64,000 nt of DNA, taken from positions 1 through 64,000 of the IMG/VR virus record IMGVR_UViG_2866048730_000001; one strand, 5' to 3'. The notes below the pieces were generated by a model. It was not told the DNA's origin. It made no database searches and saw nothing but the letters and a program-made list of their open reading frames with translations. Made by a program: the position numbers and the translations under genes. This document shows, piece by piece, positions 33,205-44,443 of this stretch; position 1 is the stretch's first letter; the number at the start of each line of letters is the position of its first letter. This DNA comes from a virus (lineage: Duplodnaviria; Caudoviricetes).

Positions 33205-33456
33205 ATGAACATCACCGTGACCGGCGTGACCCTGGCCAAGGCTGCCGCCCCCGCGATGAGCGCCGAGGAGACGATCGCCAACCTGACCGAGCGGAACTTC
33301 GAGCTCGGCCGGCTGCTGGACGCCGCCCGTGGCGAGATCGCCCGACGCGACCTGTGCGACGACATCTGGACGGTCGTCTTCGTCGGCCTGATCGAGCGGA
33401 TCGAGGAGCTGGAGCTGATGACCGGCGCCCTGGACGTCGCGGTCTTCAAGGTCTGA
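33205..33456 (+). CDS. Hypothetical early protein
   Basis: GAGGAG RBS, ATG at 33205. Confidence 0.7.
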   Translation: MNITVTGVTLAKAAAPAMSAEETIANLTERNFELGRLLDAARGEIARRDLCDDIWTVVFVGLIERIEELELMTGALDVAVFKV

Positions 33457-33518
33457 GGCGAAACGCCCTTCGGGGCGTCCGCCCGGGGTGGTGCCCGGGT
33501 GCTGATGAGCCAGCCGCT
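33457..33518 (+). ncRNA. Hammerhead ribozyme 1 (type II), cleavage after C33479
   Basis: ggc-GAAA-C[gccc ttcg gggc]GTC-[cgcccggg gtggtg cccgggtg]-CTGATGA-gcc. Confidence 0.9.
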
Positions 33519-33539
33519 CAATGCTGAAAGCGAGAGAAC

Positions 33540-34346
33540 ATGAGCCCCCGTACCTGTGACGTCGATGACGAGGTGCTGGCCGAGTATGCGGCCTACCTGG
33601 AGGACGACTACCGCTGTTGGCCGTCGTGGCAGACCTCCTGGAGCCGCCGGGGCGAGATCCCCACGCACGTCGAGGTGTTTACCTACACCGAGTACCCCCT
33701 GAACCTCATGGACAAGTCCAACTTCCGCACCGCGGCCACACTGATCCGGTGCGCGGCCGACGAGGACTGCGAGGGCACCGAGAATTCGGACGAGCAGGTC
33801 GTCCAGATCGACGGCTCGTCTATTCACTACGGCTCCGCCTACAGCCTGTACGTCCAGGTGTACGAGGGCGGCTGCGACGTGGAGTGCCCCGGCACCCACA
33901 CCGAGGAGTGCGAGCCGGGCTGTGAGCCCGACGTCGACTTCTGCTTCGGCGACGCCTGTGAGGGCGACTGCAAAGGCACCCGCACTTACACCAAGGCGTT
34001 CCGCGAGGCCGTCTCCCTGGCCGAGTACGTGAAGCACGGCTACCCGTTCCTCGATGAAGACGACCACTCCGAGCTGGAGTCCGAGGTGTTCGAGGAGAAC
34101 CTCCAAGAGGCCCTTGACGAGGCGCGCAAGGCGTACGACCTGGACACCGACGAGGACCGCGAGGCCATCGTCGAGCACGCCAGCGAGGACCTGTACGACC
34201 TGAAGTACGAGGGATCGGACGGCGAGGTGTCCTGGATCAGGACGGCCGAGGTGTACGCCGAGCACCGCGACCAGTACTTCCTCGGTCTGGCTCGGGAGAT
34301 CCTGCGGGGTGCCATCCCGGGCCAGATCGAACTGATCGCGGCCTGA
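33540..34346 (+). CDS. Acidic Cys-rich hypothetical protein
   Basis: 268-aa ORF with strong codon bias. Confidence 0.75.
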   Translation: MSPRTCDVDDEVLAEYAAYLEDDYRCWPSWQTSWSRRGEIPTHVEVFTYTEYPLNLMDKSNFRTAATLIRCAADEDCEGTENSDEQVVQIDGSSIHYGSAYSLYVQVYEGGCDVECPGTHTEECEPGCEPDVDFCFGDACEGDCKGTRTYTKAFREAVSLAEYVKHGYPFLDEDDHSELESEVFEENLQEALDEARKAYDLDTDEDREAIVEHASEDLYDLKYEGSDGEVSWIRTAEVYAEHRDQYFLGLAREILRGAIPGQIELIAA

Positions 34347-34360
34347 TTGTAAGAGTGTAA

Positions 34361-34427
34361 CTAGCGAAACGCCCCCTCCGGGGGCGTCGCCCCGGGGTGG
34401 TGCCCGGGGCCTGACGAGCCAGCCGCT
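34361..34427 (+). ncRNA. Hammerhead ribozyme 2 (type II), cleavage after C34388
   Basis: gc-GAAA-C[gccccc tcc gggggc]GTC-[gccccggg gtggtg cccggggc]-CTGACGA-gc. Confidence 0.87.
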
Positions 34428-34447
34428 CACATCGAAACGAGGTCCCC

Positions 34448-34837
34448 ATGATGAAGACCCTGCGCAAGCTCAACCCCTGGGCCAACCGCCGCGCCGAGCG
34501 AGAGGCATGGGCGCGCACCTTCACCTATGCGAGCGAGACGATCCACAAGCTTGACCACGAAGTGGCCGTGCTGCGCTCGGCCGTGGACGAGTTCGCGGAC
34601 GTGTTCAACGACGGCATGCTCGCCTCCATGGTCGGCGGCAAGTTCACCTGCGGTGAGGCCGATTCGCTGGTCCGCTTCTTCGCCCGGGTCGGCCGCCAGG
34701 AGGTCGCCGAGCTGTGGCTGGAGTGCCACGCCGAAGACGACGACGAGGGCGACCTCCACAAGACCTTCGACGACGAGGACACCCCGGACGGGACCGTCGT
34801 CGACCTTGGCGAGTACCTCCTCGAACTGGCCGCGTGA
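34448..34837 (+). CDS. Hypothetical protein
   Basis: GAGG RBS; FTCGEAD...HAEDDDEGDLH. Confidence 0.72.
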   Translation: MMKTLRKLNPWANRRAEREAWARTFTYASETIHKLDHEVAVLRSAVDEFADVFNDGMLASMVGGKFTCGEADSLVRFFARVGRQEVAELWLECHAEDDDEGDLHKTFDDEDTPDGTVVDLGEYLLELAA

Positions 34838-34845
34838 GGCCACAC

Positions 34846-34929
34846 GGCGAAACGCACACGCCTGCCCGCGAGGTGGCCGGCGTGTGCGTCGCGGGGGAGT
34901 GGTGTCCCCCTCCTGACGATGCCAGCCGC
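34846..34929 (+). ncRNA. Hammerhead ribozyme 3 (type II), cleavage after C34890
   Basis: ggc-GAAA-[cgcacacgcc...ggcgtgtgc]GTC-[gcggggga gtggtg tccccctc]-CTGACGA-t-gcc. Confidence 0.85.
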
Positions 34930-34950
34930 ATCACGATCCACGAGGTGCAC

Positions 34951-35697
34951 ATGAACAGCCAGAACAACCCCATGCTCGCCAAGGTCCGGGCGATCCTGGC
35001 CAAGGCCGAAGACCCCGCGGCCTCCCCCGAGGAGGCCCAGGCGTACTTCGCCAAGGCCGCCGCGCTGATGGCGAAGTACGGGATCGAGCGGGCCATGCTC
35101 GCTGACGCCAAGCCGGAGACCGACCGGCCCACCACGCGGGTCATCGTCGAGAGCGGCTCCTACGTGCTCGACCGCGTGAACCTGCTGATGTCGATCAACG
35201 AGGCACTCGGCGGACAGTCCGTCCGCTGGCGCACCTGGGACACGACCGCCCGCCGGTACGTCCAGAAGGTCGAGCTCCACGGCTACGAGTCGACGCTCGA
35301 CCGCGTCGAGATGCTCTACACGTCCCTCATGCTCCAGGCCCTGAACGGCATGAAGCACGGCACGCCCGGCATGGGCGAGTCCACCACCGCCTACCGCAAG
35401 ACCTGGCTCGCCGGGTTCCGCAGCGCGGTGTACCGGCGCCTGACCGACTCCGAGCGCCAGGCCGCAGCCGAGGCCGACCTTGCGCTCCCGGCCGGCAGTC
35501 GCTCGGCCGAGCTCGTGCTCAGCTCCCGCGACGACGCGATCCGCGCCCTCTTCAAGGCCGCGCACCCGAAGGTTCGCACCCCCGCGAAGCGGCGCCTGAC
35601 CGGCTCCGGCTGGAACGCGGGCAACGCGGCGGGCAAGCGCGCCAACCTCGGAGACAACCACCTCGCCAACGCCCGCCGCACCGCCCTGGCCGCGTGA
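34951..35697 (+). CDS. DUF2786-domain protein
   Basis: LAKVRAILAKAED....EEA.AY..KAAALMAKYGI. Confidence 0.8.
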   Translation: MNSQNNPMLAKVRAILAKAEDPAASPEEAQAYFAKAAALMAKYGIERAMLADAKPETDRPTTRVIVESGSYVLDRVNLLMSINEALGGQSVRWRTWDTTARRYVQKVELHGYESTLDRVEMLYTSLMLQALNGMKHGTPGMGESTTAYRKTWLAGFRSAVYRRLTDSERQAAAEADLALPAGSRSAELVLSSRDDAIRALFKAAHPKVRTPAKRRLTGSGWNAGNAAGKRANLGDNHLANARRTALAA

Positions 35698-35701
35698 TCC
35701 C

Positions 35702-35902
35702 GTGATCCGCCGCCACCGCCGATTCCTCCTCGCCCTCGCCGCCGGGGCCCTCCTTCTGGGAGCCCCCATCCAGCACGGCTACGACGCTCGGCACCACGCC
35801 CACGCGACCGTCACCGACTTCAACGACGGCTTTGCCGACTCCAAGCGCGACGACTGCGAGCACGGCTTCGCCGCCGCCTGCCAGTGGCTCGAAGCCCGCT
35901 GA
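35702..35902 (+). CDS. Small secreted/membrane hypothetical protein
   Basis: Signal-like N-terminus; FNDGFADSK. Confidence 0.55.
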   Translation: MIRRHRRFLLALAAGALLLGAPIQHGYDARHHAHATVTDFNDGFADSKRDDCEHGFAAACQWLEAR

Positions 35903-35928
35903 CCACCCACCCCCGAAAGGCAGTTCAC

Positions 35929-36180
35929 ATGGATCAGATCAAGACCCTCGCCCGCGAAGTCCTCGCGATACACCGCGAGGTGGAGGAGTGGCGGGAGGAC
36001 CACGACCCGGGCTCGCAGGAGTGGTACACCCTGGTCAACCTCGCCGACGTGGCGGCCCGGCTCATCTTCGCCCTGCCCGTCGAGATGCTCCCCGAGGAGG
36101 AGGTCCGCACGCCGAACCCCCGCGAGTACCAGGTGCTCGACGAGCTCATGACCGCACTCAACGAGGCGGGCAACCGATGA
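35929..36180 (+). CDS. Hypothetical protein
   Basis: GAAAGG RBS, ATG at 35929. Confidence 0.65.
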   Translation: MDQIKTLAREVLAIHREVEEWREDHDPGSQEWYTLVNLADVAARLIFALPVEMLPEEEVRTPNPREYQVLDELMTALNEAGNR

Positions 36181-36572
36181 GCTGGAAGTACGAGGTGCTC
36201 GTCTGCGCGGCGCCGGACAACCACGACGACTCGTGCGACCTGTGGACCCCGGGCGACACCTTCTTCGACTACGGGTTCCGTGACGCCTTCAAGGCCGCAG
36301 CCACCCAGGCCCACGCCATCGTCCGCACGGTCAGCCCGCACAACGGCAAGACCCGCACCGCCTTCCACCACATCGAAGGTGGCGGCCTGTGCGAATGGTG
36401 CGGCCCGGCGACCGGCCGCCGAGGCCCGTGGATGCGCACACCCGCCGAAGAGCGGTTCATGTGCGAGCCCTGCGTGACCGACGCCCAGAACTCCATGGAC
36501 GCCCTGCACAAGGCGAACGGCTGGTCGCGCAGCCGCTCGTACTGGCCGGTCCTGGAGAAGGCCGAGAGGTAG
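36177..36572 (+). CDS. Cys-rich hypothetical protein
   Basis: ATGA coupling; CEWC, CEPC. Confidence 0.65.
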   Translation: MSWKYEVLVCAAPDNHDDSCDLWTPGDTFFDYGFRDAFKAAATQAHAIVRTVSPHNGKTRTAFHHIEGGGLCEWCGPATGRRGPWMRTPAEERFMCEPCVTDAQNSMDALHKANGWSRSRSYWPVLEKAER

Positions 36573-36582
36573 ATCCCGACAA

Positions 36583-36644
36583 GGCGAAACCCCTGAAAGG
36601 GGGTCGCGGGGGAGTGGTGTCCCCCGCCTGACGAAGCCAGCCCT
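36583..36644 (+). ncRNA. Hammerhead ribozyme 4 (type II), cleavage after C36605
   Basis: ggc-GAAA-C[ccct gaaa gggg]GTC-[gcggggga gtggtg tcccccgc]-CTGACGA-a-gcc. Confidence 0.87.
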
Positions 36645-36664
36645 ACATCGAACTGTGAGGACAC

Positions 36665-37216
36665 ATGCCCGCGACCCTGACCGACATCGACGCCCCGCGC
36701 GTTTGGATCGGCTGCCTGGCCTGCTACAACGCCGGCTATCTGACCGGCGACTGGCACGACGCCGACGTGGCCGACCTGGTCACCCCCGAGGACCTGCACT
36801 CCAAGGCGACCGACCACGAGGAGCTGTGGGTCATGGACCACGAGAACTTCCTCGGCTTGATCGAGGGCGAGTGCTCCCCGGCCCACGCGGCCGAGATGGC
36901 CGAGCTCCTCGCCGAGATCCCCCCGTACGAGCGTCAGCCCTTCGCGATCTGGTTCAGCGTCTACGCCGACGACAACGCCGACCGGGCCGGGCTCGTCGAC
37001 GAGTTCCGCGACGCGTTCTGCGGTGAGTGGCGGTCCGAGGCCGACTACGCCCAGGAGCAGGCCGAGGAGCAGATGGACGAGGAGCGCAAGAAGCTCCTGA
37101 CCCAGTGGCCGTTCACCGACATCGACTGGGAGCGCGCATCCCACCACCTGTTCACCGGCGGCTACTCCGCCGAGGACGCCCCCGGAGGCGGCATCTATGT
37201 CTTCTACATCGGCTGA
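36665..37216 (+). CDS. ardA: Antirestriction protein ArdA
   Basis: VWIGCLACYNAG.LTGDW.D, EELWVMDHENF, GEW.SEADYA, IDWE; highly acidic. Confidence 0.85.
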   Translation: MPATLTDIDAPRVWIGCLACYNAGYLTGDWHDADVADLVTPEDLHSKATDHEELWVMDHENFLGLIEGECSPAHAAEMAELLAEIPPYERQPFAIWFSVYADDNADRAGLVDEFRDAFCGEWRSEADYAQEQAEEQMDEERKKLLTQWPFTDIDWERASHHLFTGGYSAEDAPGGGIYVFYIG

Positions 37217-37319
37217 CTGGCGGCCTGCCTGCCTGGAGTGCGGCGACGTGCCCGAACTCCTCGACGAAGACCTCACCTGCGGCCCGTGCCGCATCCGCAT
37301 CTACCTCAAGGGCCAGAGC

Positions 37320-37541
37320 ATGAAGAAGACCGTCAAGTTCAGCATCGAGCGGACCACCGAGGCCGAGGTTGAGCTCGAACTGACCATCCCGGACGAGTTC
37401 CTCGACGAAGACGGCGAGATCAGCGACGAGGACGGCTTCTGTGAGTGGCTCAACGACAACCCGGGTGAGTGGGATCTGTCGGAGCCCTTCTTCGAGGAGA
37501 TCCAGGACACCACGGTCCTCGAACTCCTCAACAGCTACTGA
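37320..37541 (+). CDS. Small very acidic protein
   Basis: Asp/Glu-rich; start uncertain (37197 or 37320). Confidence 0.6.
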   Translation: MKKTVKFSIERTTEAEVELELTIPDEFLDEDGEISDEDGFCEWLNDNPGEWDLSEPFFEEIQDTTVLELLNSY

Positions 37542-37602
37542 GTTAGCCGAACAACCACGGCACCCGTCCCCCGATCTGCCATGACTGCGGGACGGGCGCC
37601 GA

Positions 37603-37670
37603 GGCGAAACCCCGGTGGTGAGCCGGGGTCGGGGCGGGGTGGTGCCCGCCTCCTGACGATGCCAGCCGAC
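37603..37670 (+). ncRNA. Hammerhead ribozyme 5 (type II), cleavage after C37630
   Basis: ggc-GAAA-C[cccggt ggtga gccggg]GTC-[ggggcggg gtggtg cccgcctc]-CTGACGA-t-gcc. Confidence 0.87.
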
Positions 37671-37694
37671 ATCAATCACTTCGAAGGATACGAG

Positions 37695-37958
37695 ATGCTG
37701 CCCACCCTCATGCCGCCAACCGCGGAACCACCAGCCAACGTGGTCCGCTGCGTGGCGTGCGACGGTCCGATCCGCCACATCGAGCGCAAGCCGTACGAGT
37801 GCGCGCACTGCTCGCGCAACCTCTACCAGCACGACGGTCTGATCCGCCCCGGCTACCACTGGGAGATCACCGATGCCGGGTGGCTCATCAGCGTCGAAAC
37901 GGTGGACGACGAGGACGACGACTATGACGAGACGGAAGAGGAGTTCCTCGGATGGTGA
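37695..37958 (+). CDS. Zn-ribbon hypothetical protein with acidic tail
   Basis: CVAC...CAHC; AAGGA RBS. Confidence 0.6.
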   Translation: MLPTLMPPTAEPPANVVRCVACDGPIRHIERKPYECAHCSRNLYQHDGLIRPGYHWEITDAGWLISVETVDDEDDDYDETEEEFLGW

Positions 37959-38200
37959 AGCCAACCTCTTACCGTCTCCACCTTCCCCTCGACTTCGAGA
38001 CGGCCGCCGACGCGCTCGCCTGGTTCGACGAGGCCCAGCGTTCCGGCTTGATCCCGGCCGACGTCGACCTGTTCCACCCCGACGCCCTCGACACCGCCCA
38101 GCACGGCTTCACCGCCCGGGACCTCATCGTCCGGCGCTCCCGCGACCGGATGGCCTCCCTCGCCGTCCGCGCCGGCAAGGGGGTCCGCCGTGGCCGTTGA
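37952..38200 (+). CDS. Hypothetical protein
   Basis: Overlapping operon ORF. Confidence 0.55.
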   Translation: MVKPTSYRLHLPLDFETAADALAWFDEAQRSGLIPADVDLFHPDALDTAQHGFTARDLIVRRSRDRMASLAVRAGKGVRRGR

Positions 38201-38423
38201 GTACGGGAAGTGCCCATGCGGATGCGGCAAGAGCCGACTCCTCAAGGTGCGCATACCGGCGATCACCGTCATCGTCGATCGCGACCGCTGGACCGAGGAG
38301 GACGGCACCGGGCCCGACAACGAGGCGGTACGCGCCTCCGTCATCGAGTACGTGTGCAGCAGCGTCGAGTGGCTGCCGATGTTCGACGCCACCGGGGCAA
38401 CGATCAAGGTTGCTACCCGGTGA
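38190..38423 (+). CDS. Hypothetical protein
   Basis: CPCGCG; overlaps both neighbours. Confidence 0.55.
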   Translation: MAVEYGKCPCGCGKSRLLKVRIPAITVIVDRDRWTEEDGTGPDNEAVRASVIEYVCSSVEWLPMFDATGATIKVATR

Positions 38424-39670
38424 GCGCCACCGCGGCCGTCCTCCCCGACCTGGAGGAGCTGGTCGACTGGTCGATGGAGGAGCTCGAACAGCTCGCCGCC
38501 CCCTGGCCGGCACGGTGGCTCCTGCCGCCGAAGCCCGGCGATCCGGAGCGCGTCGTCTATCTCTTCGCCGGTCCGGGCGGACTCGAAGTCGGCACGCGGG
38601 ACGTCCTCGGCCGCGAACTCGACATCATCGGTGTCGAGTTCAACAAGGACGCCGCCGCGACCGCGGTGAAGGCCGGGTTCCGGCGGATCGTCGCCGACGT
38701 GCGAACGCTCGACCCGAACCACCCCGCCCTGCGCTGGACCCGCGGCCTGATCGTCACCGCGCCGTGCCAGTGCTGGACGCCCGCAGGCAAGCGTGCCGGC
38801 CAGGACCCGCACAACCAGCAGATCCTTCTGGACATGTTCGCCTGCGCGTGGGAGGCCACCGTTGGCGTCTGGGAGGAAGGCCGCGAGTGCGGGCAGGACT
38901 GCCCGGAAGGCTGCGAGGACTGCTGGGACGGCTGGTCCGGCCCCATCTACGGCATCGACGAGGTCAGGGCCATGGCCAAGGACCTGACCGACGACCGGAT
39001 CGGCCTCCTCGCCGAGGTGGTGATCTGGGGCCTCGCCCTGTCCGTCGCCTCGCCCGACTTCGGGTGGATCGCCATGGAGCAGTCCAGCGCCCTGCCGCAG
39101 GTCATCATCGACGGCATCCGCGAGGAGCTGAAGTGCGCCGACTGGCTGTCCGTGGACTTCCAGATTCTCGACGCCGTGGACTACGGACTGGCCAGCCGCC
39201 GGAAGCGCGTGTTCATGCTCGCCGCCCGGCACCGGTACTCCGTCGCCAGCACCCGCCCCGAGAGCCAGATCCCCACCACCACAGCGGCACAGGCCCTCGG
39301 CTGGCCGCCGGGCGTGCGGGTCAACACGAGAGGCACCAGAAAGACCGCTGGAGGCAATTGCTGGAGCGCGGACAAACCCGCGACCGCCATCACCAGCAAG
39401 ATCCGAGGTTGGTACTGGGAGCACGACAAGGAGAGACGCTTCTCCCTCGACGAGGCCGCCCTCCTGGCCGGGTTCCGCCCCGGACATCCGTGGACCGGCT
39501 CTCGCTCGTCCTGCACCCAGCAGATCGGCGACGTCGTCGCGCCCCCGATGGGCGCCGTCGTCCTCGGGGCACTCCTCGGCATGGCCTGGGAGGCCCGGCT
39601 CCGTGAGTACCTCGCCGAGATCTACAACACCCGCCCGACCGTCCGAAGCGAACACGCGTTGGCAGCCTGA
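38420..39670 (+). CDS. DNA (cytosine-5) methyltransferase
   Basis: LFAGPGG (I), PCQ (IV), EQ (VI variant), YGLASRRKR (VIII), QIGD (X). Confidence 0.85.
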   Translation: MSATAAVLPDLEELVDWSMEELEQLAAPWPARWLLPPKPGDPERVVYLFAGPGGLEVGTRDVLGRELDIIGVEFNKDAAATAVKAGFRRIVADVRTLDPNHPALRWTRGLIVTAPCQCWTPAGKRAGQDPHNQQILLDMFACAWEATVGVWEEGRECGQDCPEGCEDCWDGWSGPIYGIDEVRAMAKDLTDDRIGLLAEVVIWGLALSVASPDFGWIAMEQSSALPQVIIDGIREELKCADWLSVDFQILDAVDYGLASRRKRVFMLAARHRYSVASTRPESQIPTTTAAQALGWPPGVRVNTRGTRKTAGGNCWSADKPATAITSKIRGWYWEHDKERRFSLDEAALLAGFRPGHPWTGSRSSCTQQIGDVVAPPMGAVVLGALLGMAWEARLREYLAEIYNTRPTVRSEHALAA

Positions 39671-39861
39671 TGACCACGAACACCACCGCGCCCGAGCCGG
39701 CCGTCCACCTCGCCTGTCCGTTCTGCAAGTCCACCCACATCACCCTGAACGTCCGCGAGTGGGCCGTCTGCGACACCTGCAAGCGCGGCGACATGTGGGG
39801 CCAGTTCATGATCTGCAACTGCTGGGGCTACGACTGCCCGGCGATCCTCAACTTCTCCTGA
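39670..39861 (+). CDS. Small Zn-finger protein
   Basis: CPFC...CDTC. Confidence 0.6.
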   Translation: MTTNTTAPEPAVHLACPFCKSTHITLNVREWAVCDTCKRGDMWGQFMICNCWGYDCPAILNFS

Positions 39862-39872
39862 AAGAGAGCGAC

Positions 39873-40196
39873 ATGAGCAAGTACACCGACACTGTCACCC
39901 TGACCGACGGCACCACGCTGAAGATCCGCATCGAGCGCGGAATCGCTGGCACGGTCTTCCGCGAGGTCCCCAGCCGCCAGCGACCGGCCGGCAGCCTCAT
40001 GCGGATCGGCACCGCGATGCACCTCGTCACCCGCAGCCACCTGACCCCCATCGTCCCTGACCGCTGGGCCAGCGCCGCCGACGACGCCGAGGGCGCCGAG
40101 ATCGCCCTCGCCTTCTTCACCGAGAGCGCCGAGGCGTGCATCGAGCACGCGAGCGCCGAAGGCATCCCGGTCGAACAGTGCTACTCGATCACCTGA
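39873..40196 (+). CDS. Hypothetical protein
   Basis: ATG at 39873 after purine-rich RBS. Confidence 0.6.
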   Translation: MSKYTDTVTLTDGTTLKIRIERGIAGTVFREVPSRQRPAGSLMRIGTAMHLVTRSHLTPIVPDRWASAADDAEGAEIALAFFTESAEACIEHASAEGIPVEQCYSIT

Positions 40197-40212
40197 TTGT
40201 AAGAGTGTGACC

Positions 40213-40274
40213 GGCGAAACCTCCGAAGGGAGGTCGTCGCGGGGTGGCGCCCGCGGCCTGACGAGCCAGCCACC
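40213..40274 (+). ncRNA. Hammerhead ribozyme 6 (type II), cleavage after C40235
   Basis: ggc-GAAA-C[ctcc gaag ggag]GTC-[gtcgcggg gtggcg cccgcggc]-CTGACGA-gcc; loop GTGGC pairs with tail GCCAC. Confidence 0.9.
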
Positions 40275-40293
40275 AACAAGCAAGGAGACACAC

Positions 40294-43162: not shown

Positions 43163-44443
43163 GTGGCCACCGTCTTTCAGCCCTGCAAAGAAGAAGAGCA
43201 GGATCGTTTCTATCCCTGCACGAAGGCCCGCTGCGGCCACAAGTGGCTCGTCCGCTACCGGGAGCCGGGCGGCCGGTCCGGGAGACAGCGCGAGAAGAGC
43301 TTCGCCAAGAAGACCGGGCCCGACGGCGCTGACGCCTTCGCCAGCAAGGTCGAGCACGACAAGGGCATGGGCGTCTACCTCGACCCCCAGCGGGGCGCCA
43401 TCACCCTCCGGGCCTACGCCAAGGAGTGGCTGGAGCGGCAGATCCTCGCGGAGGGCACCTTCCGGAACTACGAAGGCTTCATCCGAAACCACCTGATACC
43501 GCACCTCGGGCGCAAGACCCTGGCCGGCCTCGCCCAGAGCGACTTCGAGCGGTTCGTCGCCACCCTCCACCGCAAGGGCGAGGGCATGGCCGCCTCGACG
43601 ATCAACGACCGCATGAACATCCCGATCGCGATGCTCGAAGCGGCGATCGTCGAGAAGCGCATCTCCGAGAACCCGGCCAAGGGCGTCAAGATCCCCCGGA
43701 CGAGCAGTATCGCCGTCGACGAGGACGAGATCCCCACCCTCGAAGAAGTCGATCTCCTCGGCAAGCACATCTCCCCGCAGTACCGCCTGACGGTCTACCT
43801 CATGGCGGGGGCCGGGCTACGGCCAAGCGAAGCTCTCGCCTTCGCCTGTGAATGCCGCCGCACCGAGTTCATTCGAATCCGCTGGCAGGTCAGCGCGAAG
43901 GCGAGCCGCGGCGACAGCCGAACCAGGTTCGTTCCGCTGAAGCACCGCGCGGAAGGCGAGTACCGGGATATCCCGATCGCCCCGTTCCTGGACGAGGAGA
44001 TCGACGCCCACGAGGAGCAGTGGGCGCCCATCCCGGTCGCCTTCAAGGACAAGGCTGGTAAGGACAGGGAGCTCGAAGTCTTCTTCGCCCCGCGCGAGCG
44101 GGGCAAGGGCACCATGCCCACGGCCAACACCTTCGGCTACCACTTCAAGAAGGCATGCATCGCGGCCGGGCTCGTCGACTCGAACGGCAAGCCGAAGTAC
44201 ACCCCGCACGCTCTGCGACATTTCTTCGCCTCGACCGCCCTCGCGAACGGAATTCCTATCCACGAGGTCTCCCGATGGCTCGGACACAAGTCCATCAAGA
44301 TCACCGTGGACACCTACGGACACCTCGTCCCGGGTGCCTGGCACCGCTGCCGCGAGGTCATGCAGGCCGCCATGCGGCCGGTACCGTTGGACCTGGATCG
44401 GCCGGCACCCGGCGGTGCCGACGACTACGGCCCTGCCGCGTAG
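43163..44443 (+). CDS. int: Tyrosine integrase
   Basis: GLRPSEA, HALRHFFAS, LGH, TYGH. Confidence 0.93.
   Translation: MATVFQPCKEEEQDRFYPCTKARCGHKWLVRYREPGGRSGRQREKSFAKKTGPDGADAFASKVEHDKGMGVYLDPQRGAITLRAYAKEWLERQILAEGTFRNYEGFIRNHLIPHLGRKTLAGLAQSDFERFVATLHRKGEGMAASTINDRMNIPIAMLEAAIVEKRISENPAKGVKIPRTSSIAVDEDEIPTLEEVDLLGKHISPQYRLTVYLMAGAGLRPSEALAFACECRRTEFIRIRWQVSAKASRGDSRTRFVPLKHRAEGEYRDIPIAPFLDEEIDAHEEQWAPIPVAFKDKAGKDRELEVFFAPRERGKGTMPTANTFGYHFKKACIAAGLVDSNGKPKYTPHALRHFFASTALANGIPIHEVSRWLGHKSIKITVDTYGHLVPGAWHRCREVMQAAMRPVPLDLDRPAPGGADDYGPAA

Follow-up and report, generated by a model that had tools for sequence, protein, structure and literature searches.

Hammerhead ribozymes as probable punctuation of the early operon mRNA of a Streptomyces prophage

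What might a phage gain from placing one hammerhead ribozyme after another between the genes of a single operon? The question is raised by a viral sequence of 64,000 nucleotides (hereafter the window), which belongs to a prophage of a Streptomyces host and to the R4-like group of the Arquatrovirinae. An integrase is encoded at 43163-44443, the structural genes, those for the tail among them, occupy the other arm, and the early operon includes antirestriction, methylase and nucleotide-kinase genes; many of its ORFs are very small.

Rfam cmscan, run at gathering thresholds (37 bits for RF02276), returned exactly six Hammerhead_II matches in the window, all on the + strand (42.1-59.9 bits), and a family-specific covariance model built here likewise found exactly six (63.9-79 bits). 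They are, with their predicted cleavage sites:

HH1, 33456..33519, + strand: type II hammerhead, cleaving after C33479 (C33479/C33480); Rfam 58.9 bits, own model 77.6
HH2, 34362..34428, + strand: type II hammerhead, cleaving after C34388 (C34388/G34389); Rfam 59.9 bits, own model 71.9
HH3, 34845..34931, + strand: type II hammerhead with extended stem III, cleaving after C34890 (C34890/G34891); Rfam 42.1 bits, own model 63.9
HH4, 36582..36646, + strand: type II hammerhead, cleaving after C36605 (C36605/G36606); Rfam 47.9 bits, own model 77.2
HH5, 37602..37671, + strand: type II hammerhead, cleaving after C37630 (C37630/G37631); Rfam 49.6 bits, own model 76.5
HH6, 40212..40275, + strand: type II hammerhead, cleaving after C40235 (C40235/G40236); Rfam 52.1 bits, own model 79

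For HH6 our script placed the cleavage site at 40238 and the Rfam alignment at 40235, in agreement with the preliminary description, and the latter is used throughout. The catalytic core (CUGAYGA, CGAAAC with its GAAA, and the GUC cleavage triplet) is intact in all six copies; in HH3-5 one additional base follows A9, a feature shared by about half of 47 related copies. The six elements are genuine type II hammerheads, with predicted self-cleavage activity. From the sequence and the script, the fragments expected between successive sites measure 909, 502, 1715, 1025 and 2605 nt. Rfam, our own model and the sequence bear out the preliminary description on the hammerheads, on where they cleave and on the fragments of 909 and 502 nt. 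Hammerhead cleavage leaves a 5'-OH on one product and a 2',3'-cyclic phosphate on the other, and by this established chemistry the same ends would be expected at these six sites.

Each ribozyme occupies a gap between + strand ORFs, and together they delimit blocks of 1, 1, 4, 2 and 6 genes. HH1 overlaps the stop codon of the preceding 83-aa ORF and leaves 20 nt between its own end and the ATG at 33540; across the window, 18-23 bases separate the end of a ribozyme from the next start codon. The genes carried by the predicted fragments, and two operator-like motifs that adjoin ribozymes, are as follows:

33540..34346, + strand: gene of fragment 1 (909 nt), 268-aa protein, phrog_4313, conserved in 142 Streptomyces phages
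34347..34361, + strand: operator/stoperator-like 15-mer, abutting HH2 on its upstream side
34448..34837, + strand: gene of fragment 2 (502 nt), 129-aa protein, phrog_1178
34951..36572, + strand: four genes of fragment 3 (1715 nt), a DUF2786 protein at 34951-35697 and small ORFs at 35702-35902, 35929-36180 and 36177-36572
36665..37541, + strand: fragment 4 (1025 nt), ArdA antirestriction protein at 36665-37216 (Pfam ArdA 70.1 bits, phrog_2059) and a 114-aa ORF at 37197-37541
37695..40196, + strand: six genes of fragment 5 (2605 nt), including a C5 cytosine DNA methyltransferase at 38420-39670
40197..40211, + strand: second copy of the operator/stoperator-like 15-mer, abutting HH6 on its upstream side

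The 15-mer occurs 13 times in the window against 0.09 copies expected, and its strand follows gene direction. The ardA gene (start 36665) lies directly downstream of HH4 (end 36646), an order repeated in three related prophages, and by synteny HH4 is the one copy that three related prophages have kept.

The pattern of sequence change among copies indicates selection at the level of RNA. In an alignment of 47 copies, drawn from this prophage and from relatives, 87% of cells are paired (70% in shuffles), and none of 500 shuffles reached the covariation score of 0.45 (0.16 in shuffles). Because pairing and covariation exceed those of the shuffles, the hammerheads are selected RNA structures rather than chance matches. 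Compensatory changes occur at 16 of the 21 pairs and support all three helices; stem II is the open one, and stems I and III are capped. Loop I also forms a pseudoknot with the 3' tail, whose pairs 77-105, 78-104 and 80-103 are kept in 43-46 of the 47 copies; one pair shows U-G to C-G changes, and the outer pairs are weak. A selfish or recently spread DNA repeat is ruled out, since compensatory changes distinguish the copies and the exact runs they have in common are only 9-23 nt long.

Related phages extend this picture. A search of 400 Streptomyces genomes returned mosaic relatives only, at 63-80% identity, megablast of the window against phages gave only short matches, and ArdA had no tblastn match in the phage collection. 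One unpublished genome was among those sampled, and none of the conclusions draws on it. All 138 scored copies have the orientation of the operon. In relatives (94 copies), the median distance from ribozyme to start codon is about 20 nt (most fall within 14-33 nt), and the preceding stop codon mostly lies 0-20 nt before the ribozyme. Related prophages carry as many as 17-19 hammerheads, with exactly one ORF in each inter-ribozyme segment, and three relatives have an operon that is similar except for containing just one hammerhead. Among cultured Streptomyces phages, Thestral, Daudau and Celia have 9-11 hammerheads.

In other relatives the position is taken by a different element. A pistol ribozyme stands in for the hammerhead before the same gene (83% amino acid identity), the DNA shared between the two arrangements beginning 19 and 14 nt past the ribozyme. 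In Hydra and Hippo (Likavirus) and Dexers (Camvirus), a covarying tRNA-like minihelix occupies the hammerhead slot before the phrog_4313 gene at the same spacing; in Hippo another precedes an Ocr-like gene, again at the same spacing. These three phages have 7-10 such elements, in slots of the operon that match those of the hammerheads in Thestral, Daudau and Celia; elements of both kinds often stand directly ahead of an antirestriction gene. In several lineages antirestriction genes directly follow an element of one kind or another, in line with what Perreault et al. (2011) saw for ardA. Minihelix and hammerhead were never found together in one genome among the sampled phages, and a search for known ribozymes in the hammerhead-free Hydra, Hippo and Dexers (Rfam, E up to 5) found none. 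ARAGORN called none of their elements a tRNA and single-sequence folds gave z-scores near 0; covariation and a T-loop consensus are the whole basis on which we call these putative elements tRNA-like. Since relatives put a pistol ribozyme or a tRNA-like minihelix at matching junctions, what selection keeps would seem to be cutting at that spot, rather than a given end chemistry or a DNA repeat.

We therefore think it likely, at a probability of roughly 0.7, that the hammerheads punctuate the mRNA of the early lytic operon co-transcriptionally. The starting points are what we observed, namely what the ribozymes are, where and in which orientation and spacing they lie, how they covary, and that in relatives other RNA-cutting or processing elements replace them; from these sequence features we infer cleavage in vivo and its effects on mRNA stability and translation. 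As RNA polymerase passes an intergenic gap, the ribozyme would fold and cut, so that the long transcript would be split into mono- or oligocistronic mRNAs. The two products of a type II hammerhead with a stem II of 2-3 bp would fall apart at once. The upstream mRNA would end in the stem III hairpin followed by GUC with its 2',3'-cyclic phosphate, and the downstream mRNA would begin with a 5'-OH placed directly at the foot of the G+C-rich stem I hairpin, continuing into a standard leader of about 20 nt, the Shine-Dalgarno sequence and the start codon. By virtue of these cleavage ends, each cistron would acquire defined, hairpin-capped termini and a context-independent leader. The caps may shield it from 5'-end-dependent decay by RNase E/J and from 3' exonucleases, its stability and translation would be uncoupled from those of its neighbours, and the cutting itself would require no host enzyme. 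Predicted Shine-Dalgarno accessibility was 0.526 in cleaved and 0.482 in uncleaved RNA (higher in 33 of 49 cases), a small difference, computed without a control, that shortening of the RNA alone would be expected to produce. Dense punctuation is not essential, as three relatives manage with one hammerhead.

Punctuation of this kind has a well-known parallel. In coliphage T7, whose early transcript begins with an antirestriction gene, RNase III cuts the polycistronic RNA between cistrons and leaves protective terminal hairpins. The two systems would work alike without being homologous, but T7 needs a host enzyme and double-stranded RNA sites, whereas here the RNA is predicted to cut itself and to leave a 5'-OH and a cyclic phosphate. 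Engineered ribozyme insulators such as RiboJ, which sit just upstream of the ribosome-binding site, likewise remove upstream RNA context and leave a hairpin at the new 5' end; RiboJ is synthetic, while the elements described here are natural, arrayed and phage-borne.

Could the ribozyme-bearing gaps act instead, or in addition, at the level of DNA? The preliminary description proposed that the repeated units bracket genes and could serve as recombination points for gene shuffling, and that breakpoints in related phages should fall at hammerheads. We mapped breakpoints in more distant prophages and in pairs of closely related phages. On this reading, hammerhead gaps would be conserved DNA linkers through which homologous recombination exchanges whole ORFs, either as a side effect of the RNA role or beside it. 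It is true that single genes or short blocks lie between ribozymes, and relatives do exchange cassettes with ORF precision: between segment 8 of one related array, L032, and segment 10 of another, L033, the flanking hammerheads and about 50 nt are 75-84% identical around unrelated genes. Swaps also often adjoin hammerheads, as a comparison of L032 with L033 places 14 of the 17 block boundaries no more than 60 nt from one (about 31% would be expected at random positions) and three of six indels among the close phage pairs touch a hammerhead junction. However, every junction in L032 and L033 has a hammerhead, so that selection for intact genes accounts for the enrichment there equally well, and about 36% of the junctions in the phage pairs carry one, so that three of six is not an excess.

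Where joints could be mapped finely, they fell at stop codons, in ribosome-binding-site spacers or at start codons, never within the ribozyme, and the recombinant gene of L032 segment 14 was joined inside its coding sequence. Junctions without a hammerhead were as fluid as those with one: in five related prophages the window's junctions were conserved equally rarely (3-5 of 25 with a hammerhead, 5 of 30 without), and the single-hammerhead relatives are equally mosaic. Nor is there any sign of recombination between paralogous copies, given that gene order is colinear and that exact identity between copies extends over such short runs. Of the shuffling proposal, the bracketing of genes and their ORF-precise exchange in relatives hold. 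We consider conserved linkers unlikely, and the case for a DNA recombination role of the ribozymes weak. An integron-like attC reading of the elements was also rejected: the mapped joints lie outside the element, and stems that tolerate G-U pairs together with a conserved ribozyme core point to selection on RNA.

A broader proposal would combine these strands. Hammerheads, pistol ribozymes and tRNA-like minihelices might form one interchangeable class of punctuation in actinophage early operons, with module and leader doubling as patches of homology for ORF-precise exchange between co-infecting phages, in effect RNA-defined, integron-like cassettes, and perhaps with some circular mRNA made by RtcB as a by-product. 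In its entirety we regard this as improbable.

The cuts might also serve mainly to break coupling on the nascent RNA, releasing Rho or 5'-to-3' exonucleases arriving from upstream, which would prevent polarity from poorly translated small early genes. An operon of many very small ORFs would suit such a role, as would a ribozyme right behind the stop codon and a downstream fragment that opens with a hairpin at its 5'-OH, but sequence data cannot separate this from the general punctuation model, and we hold it to be very improbable as the main function.

Circular mRNAs, which the preliminary description had also suggested, would be the selected product if fragments were joined head to tail by the host RtcB or by hammerhead reverse ligation into exonuclease-proof, translatable rings. 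Here the chemistry is permissive: RtcB accepts ends of the predicted kind, 5'-OH and 2',3'-cyclic phosphate, and a full-length copy of this ligase is encoded by the host (419 bits). The strands of stem II are identical in the six copies, so that any 5' half can pair with any 3' half, and chimeric hammerheads are predicted to be as stable as native ones (ddG -3.2 to -5.6 against -0.9 to -5.2 kcal/mol). Yet a stem II of only 2-3 bp, with association energies of -1 to -5.6 kcal/mol, should not keep the halves together. Over the 100 nt at either end, the fragments are no more complementary than random pairs of operon segments (z +0.1 to +1.8), and MFE folds show only 3-5 terminal pairs. The fragments are densely coding and not rod-like, and if the tRNA-like element in the same slots of relatives is processed by RNase P/Z, the ends there would not be of the RtcB type. 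In addition, Perreault et al. (2011; PMC3088659) sought circular or spliced products of such arrays and found none. Of the earlier suggestion, then, the chemical possibility and the host ligase stand, and circularization itself goes unsupported; as the selected outcome we judge it most improbable.

Hammerhead circles, ligated by tRNA ligase or RtcB-type enzymes, are known from viroids (Avsunviroidae), satellite RNAs and retrozymes (PMC6765202). Those hammerheads share ribozyme class and end chemistry with ours, but they are of type I or III, with an open helix that holds the ends, and act in non-coding, highly self-complementary RNAs derived from repeats of one ribozyme; here the ribozymes are of type II, the open helix has 2-3 bp, the fragments are coding and their ends show no complementarity beyond background. 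Of the features that hold together the ends of a viroid- or retrozyme-type circular RNA, we found neither a stable open helix (stem II again being 2-3 bp) nor extensive self-complementarity (end duplexes at background).

The multi-hammerhead prophage arrangement itself was already known. Perreault et al. (2011, PLoS Comput Biol; PMC3088659) described such operons, including one with a hammerhead just before ardA, reported that comparable prophage arrays were cleaved in vitro and in E. coli, and raised both processing into gene-length mRNAs and possible circular or spliced products. Our array resembles theirs in its type II hammerheads, the loop I/3'-tail pseudoknot, the single orientation, the delimitation of single genes or short blocks, the nearby integrase and the copy before ardA. 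It differs in its Streptomyces host and Arquatrovirinae phage, in copy number (six here, up to 17-19 in relatives), in the repressor-operator-like motif that some copies directly abut, and in the substitution of a pistol ribozyme or tRNA-like minihelix in relatives. Within the collection of papers searched, we found nothing relevant on hammerheads in actinobacteriophages, on tRNA-like elements in Streptomyces phages or on hammerhead/RtcB circles in phages.

Circles and shuffling are thus old ideas that find little support at this locus. What hammerheads do in bacteria and phages, where thousands are known, has been a standing question since 2011 (PMC3088659), and a 2019 review called the purpose of the bacterial ones unresolved (PMC6765202). 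This locus does not answer that question, but sets it in a workable system: cultured phages, held in public collections, that carry hammerheads or tRNA-like elements in matching slots.

Six hammerheads were recovered in the window with the curated thresholds of Rfam, all of them type II (RF02276), on the + strand and scoring 42–60 bits against a cut-off of 37:

33456-33519, + strand: hammerhead 1, predicted cleavage after C33479
34362-34428, + strand: hammerhead 2, predicted cleavage after C34388
34845-34931, + strand: hammerhead 3, predicted cleavage after C34890
36582-36646, + strand: hammerhead 4, predicted cleavage after C36605
37602-37671, + strand: hammerhead 5, predicted cleavage after C37630
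40212-40275, + strand: hammerhead 6, predicted cleavage after C40235

The fragments between predicted cleavage sites measure 909, 502, 1715, 1025 and 2605 nt, so the coordinates and sizes given in the preliminary description are correct. The GUC cleavage triplet can be read from the sequence of all six copies, as can CGAAAC and CUGAYGA. A permissive scan of the 64-kb window found no ribozymes beyond these six, and the whole 6.66-Mb genome holds one extra hammerhead copy, 24 kb outside the window. When 47 copies, taken from the window prophage and from related elements, are aligned, pairing holds in 87% of cells (70% in shuffles) and compensatory changes occur at 16 of 21 pairs, counting a three-pair stem II and a pseudoknot between loop I and the 3' tail; the covariation score of 0.45 (0.16 in shuffles) was reached by none of 500 shuffles. 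The window hammerheads are selected ribozyme folds and not DNA repeats; the exact runs that the six copies share span only 9–23 nt.

The window is a chromosomal region of a Streptomyces-type genome. Structural genes occupy the - strand between about 9.5 and 28.9 kb, and an early operon runs on the + strand from 29.5 kb up to the integrase at 43163-44443. The hammerheads split this operon into blocks of 1, 1, 4, 2 and 6 genes:

Block 1, hammerheads 1-2, + strand: one gene, phrog_4313 protein
Block 2, hammerheads 2-3, + strand: one gene, phrog_1178 protein
Block 3, hammerheads 3-4, + strand: DUF2786 protein and three small ORFs
Block 4, hammerheads 4-5, + strand: ArdA and one ORF
Block 5, hammerheads 5-6, + strand: six genes, a C5 DNA methyltransferase among them

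The ArdA gene begins 19 nt downstream of hammerhead 4; in Agrobacterium and Legionella, too, ardA is found directly downstream of a hammerhead (PMC3088659). A homologue of the phrog_4313 gene occurs in the same right-arm operon of 142 Streptomyces phages, and its presence places the window element among the R4-like Arquatrovirinae.

The window also contains an asymmetric 15-nt motif, TTGTAAGAGTGTAAC, with 13 sites at 6716-61263 against 0.09 expected, examples being:

32225, 33109, 34347 and 40197, + strand: TTGTAAGAGTGTAAC sites
26772 and 29479, - strand: TTGTAAGAGTGTAAC sites

The strand of the copies matches gene direction, and one copy directly adjoins each of hammerheads 2 and 6. The motif is operator-like, with a likeness to the stoperators found in cluster A mycobacteriophages, and is not shared by the relatives examined.

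Counted with Rfam and our own model, the elements of the relatives are as follows:

Thestral, Bowden, TinaBelcher: 11 hammerheads each
VieEnRose, Celia, Itza: 11 hammerheads each, one of them weak
Daudau: 9 hammerheads
Streptomyces prophages G042 and G176: 17-19 hammerheads within about 10 kb
Streptomyces prophage G128: 11-12 hammerheads within about 6 kb
G176, hammerhead operon, L033 (G176:C2:731000-747000) 1112-1180, 2159-2227 and 2628-2693: 3 pistol ribozymes, 68-70 bits
Hydra, L001 1350-8621: 0 hammerheads, 10 tRNA-like elements
Hippo, L003 1204-5089: 0 hammerheads, 7-8 tRNA-like elements
Dexers, L004 733-5876: 0 hammerheads, 9 tRNA-like elements

Every hammerhead of the relatives lies on the operon strand, and the 16 segments between ribozymes in G042 contain exactly one ORF apiece. 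Hydra, Hippo and Dexers, three sampled Likavirus and Camvirus Streptomyces phages, yielded no hammerhead in a search to E up to 5. The gaps of roughly 100 nt between their early genes carry a repeat about 50 nt long, in which an acceptor-like stem of 5 bp is stacked on one of 6 bp that ends in a T-loop (GGUUCGAGYCC). This minihelix covaries (6 of 11 pairs within Hydra alone) and is probably a substrate of RNase P/Z; ARAGORN calls no tRNA for it in the three phages, where it is also unannotated, and its model has no match in the window or in any hammerhead-bearing locus searched.

Two further arrangements were observed. In Thestral (L002), the hammerheads at 1496-1563 and 1566-1630 stand back to back, 2 nt apart, as they also do in Bowden and TinaBelcher; such a pair would free an RNA of about 70 nt without an ORF, consisting of a 3' half and a 5' half. 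The early-operon leader of G042 contains a 220-nt match to bacterial 16S rRNA (L032, G042:C21:48000-66000, 2081-2299; model positions 101-347, 127 bits), an insertion relative to G176 that may represent rRNA captured by the prophage or else an artefact of assembly.

Hammerheads and tRNA-like elements are placed alike. From the end of a hammerhead to the next start codon the median distance is about 20 nt (mostly 14–33 nt; 18–23 nt in the window, counted as bases between), and most hammerheads begin 0–20 nt after the upstream stop codon; tRNA-like elements end 10–36 nt ahead of the next start. At matching junctions the elements replace one another: (i) in the window, Thestral, Daudau and VieEnRose the phrog_4313 gene follows a hammerhead, and in Hydra, Hippo and Dexers it follows a tRNA-like element; (ii) the Ocr-like antirestriction gene of Thestral, Bowden and Celia is preceded by a hammerhead, and that of Hippo by a tRNA-like element; and (iii) the same gene (83% amino acid identity) has a hammerhead before it in G042 and a pistol ribozyme in G176, the shared DNA at this junction beginning 14 and 19 nt past the ribozyme. 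One slot is thus shared by three devices that are unrelated and differ in end chemistry, which suggests from sequence comparison that it is a cut at this position between genes that selection maintains.

The most likely function of the hammerheads is self-contained mRNA punctuation, through which each early cistron would receive defined, hairpin-capped ends and a standard leader, much as early T7 RNA is processed by RNase III.

The flanked cassettes had also been proposed as gene-shuffling units. Cassette-like, ORF-precise gene exchange is real among the relatives; that ribozyme DNA has a specific role in it, as a contributing side effect, we consider rather unlikely. Between G042 and G176, 14 of 17 block boundaries fall within 60 nt of a hammerhead and conserved ribozyme linkers enclose unrelated ORFs, as such a role would have it; however, these prophages carry a ribozyme at every junction, and their gene order is still colinear. 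Moreover, one G042 gene (L032 11175-12005) spans two G176 genes (L033 9425-9979 and 10084-10989), with 80% identity over 81 amino acids to the start of the first and 55% over 181 to most of the second, which implies a putative recombination or fusion within coding sequence, with loss of the intervening hammerhead. Among close phage pairs, 3 of 6 indels touch a hammerhead junction, where about 36% of junctions carry one, and the mapped joints fall at a stop codon (Thestral gp67 indel), a start codon (VieEnRose/Celia gene replacement) or an RBS spacer that is repeated (Celia gp58); none falls inside a ribozyme.

Five related prophages (G171, G154, G351, G190 and the genome's own second prophage, 50–70% identical in amino acids to the window prophage in shared genes) are mosaic from phrog_4313 to the kinase and conserved from kinase to integrase. 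Three of them retain just one hammerhead, in each case that in front of ardA, and these three are no less mosaic than the rest. In the second prophage (L031, G000:C1:4512000-4531999) this hammerhead lies upstream of ardA:

L031 12851-12915: single hammerhead, separated from ardA by one predicted 62-aa ORF

The same layout recurs in G171 and G154. By our own count of window junctions with at least one partner gene present, adjacency is kept in 3–5 of 25 cases at hammerhead junctions versus 5 of 30 at hammerhead-free ones, the five relatives being non-independent. A specific role of ribozyme DNA in cassette exchange is neither required nor shown.

That circular RNAs are the selected function, the other proposal, is very improbable, although trace circles may form. 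In its favour, the host encodes RtcB, and the stem II strands are universal, so that pairing in a chimera of two halves equals that in the native hammerhead. Against it, the halves are held by only 2–3 bp (-1 to -5.6 kcal/mol), complementarity between fragment termini does not exceed that of random operon segments (z +0.1 to +1.8), coding sequence fills the fragments densely, the alternative tRNA-like element would leave no RtcB-type ends, and circular or spliced products were explicitly considered in 2011 with neither detected (PMC3088659).

Both proposals repeat old speculation; here the circles find no support and the shuffling units find weak support. Single genes or short gene blocks flanked by multiple hammerheads are often found in prophages (Perreault et al., 2011; PMC3088659), and the same study reported that arrays of this type are cleaved both in vitro and in E. 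coli and already proposed processing into gene-length mRNAs. The window array is a new Streptomyces member of this group, real and ordinary for its kind. A 2019 review still listed the purpose of such ribozymes as unresolved (PMC6765202). What our comparison adds is that hammerheads, pistol ribozymes and tRNA-like minihelices interchange in matching slots of cultured Streptomyces phages, and this makes the question of function accessible to experiment.
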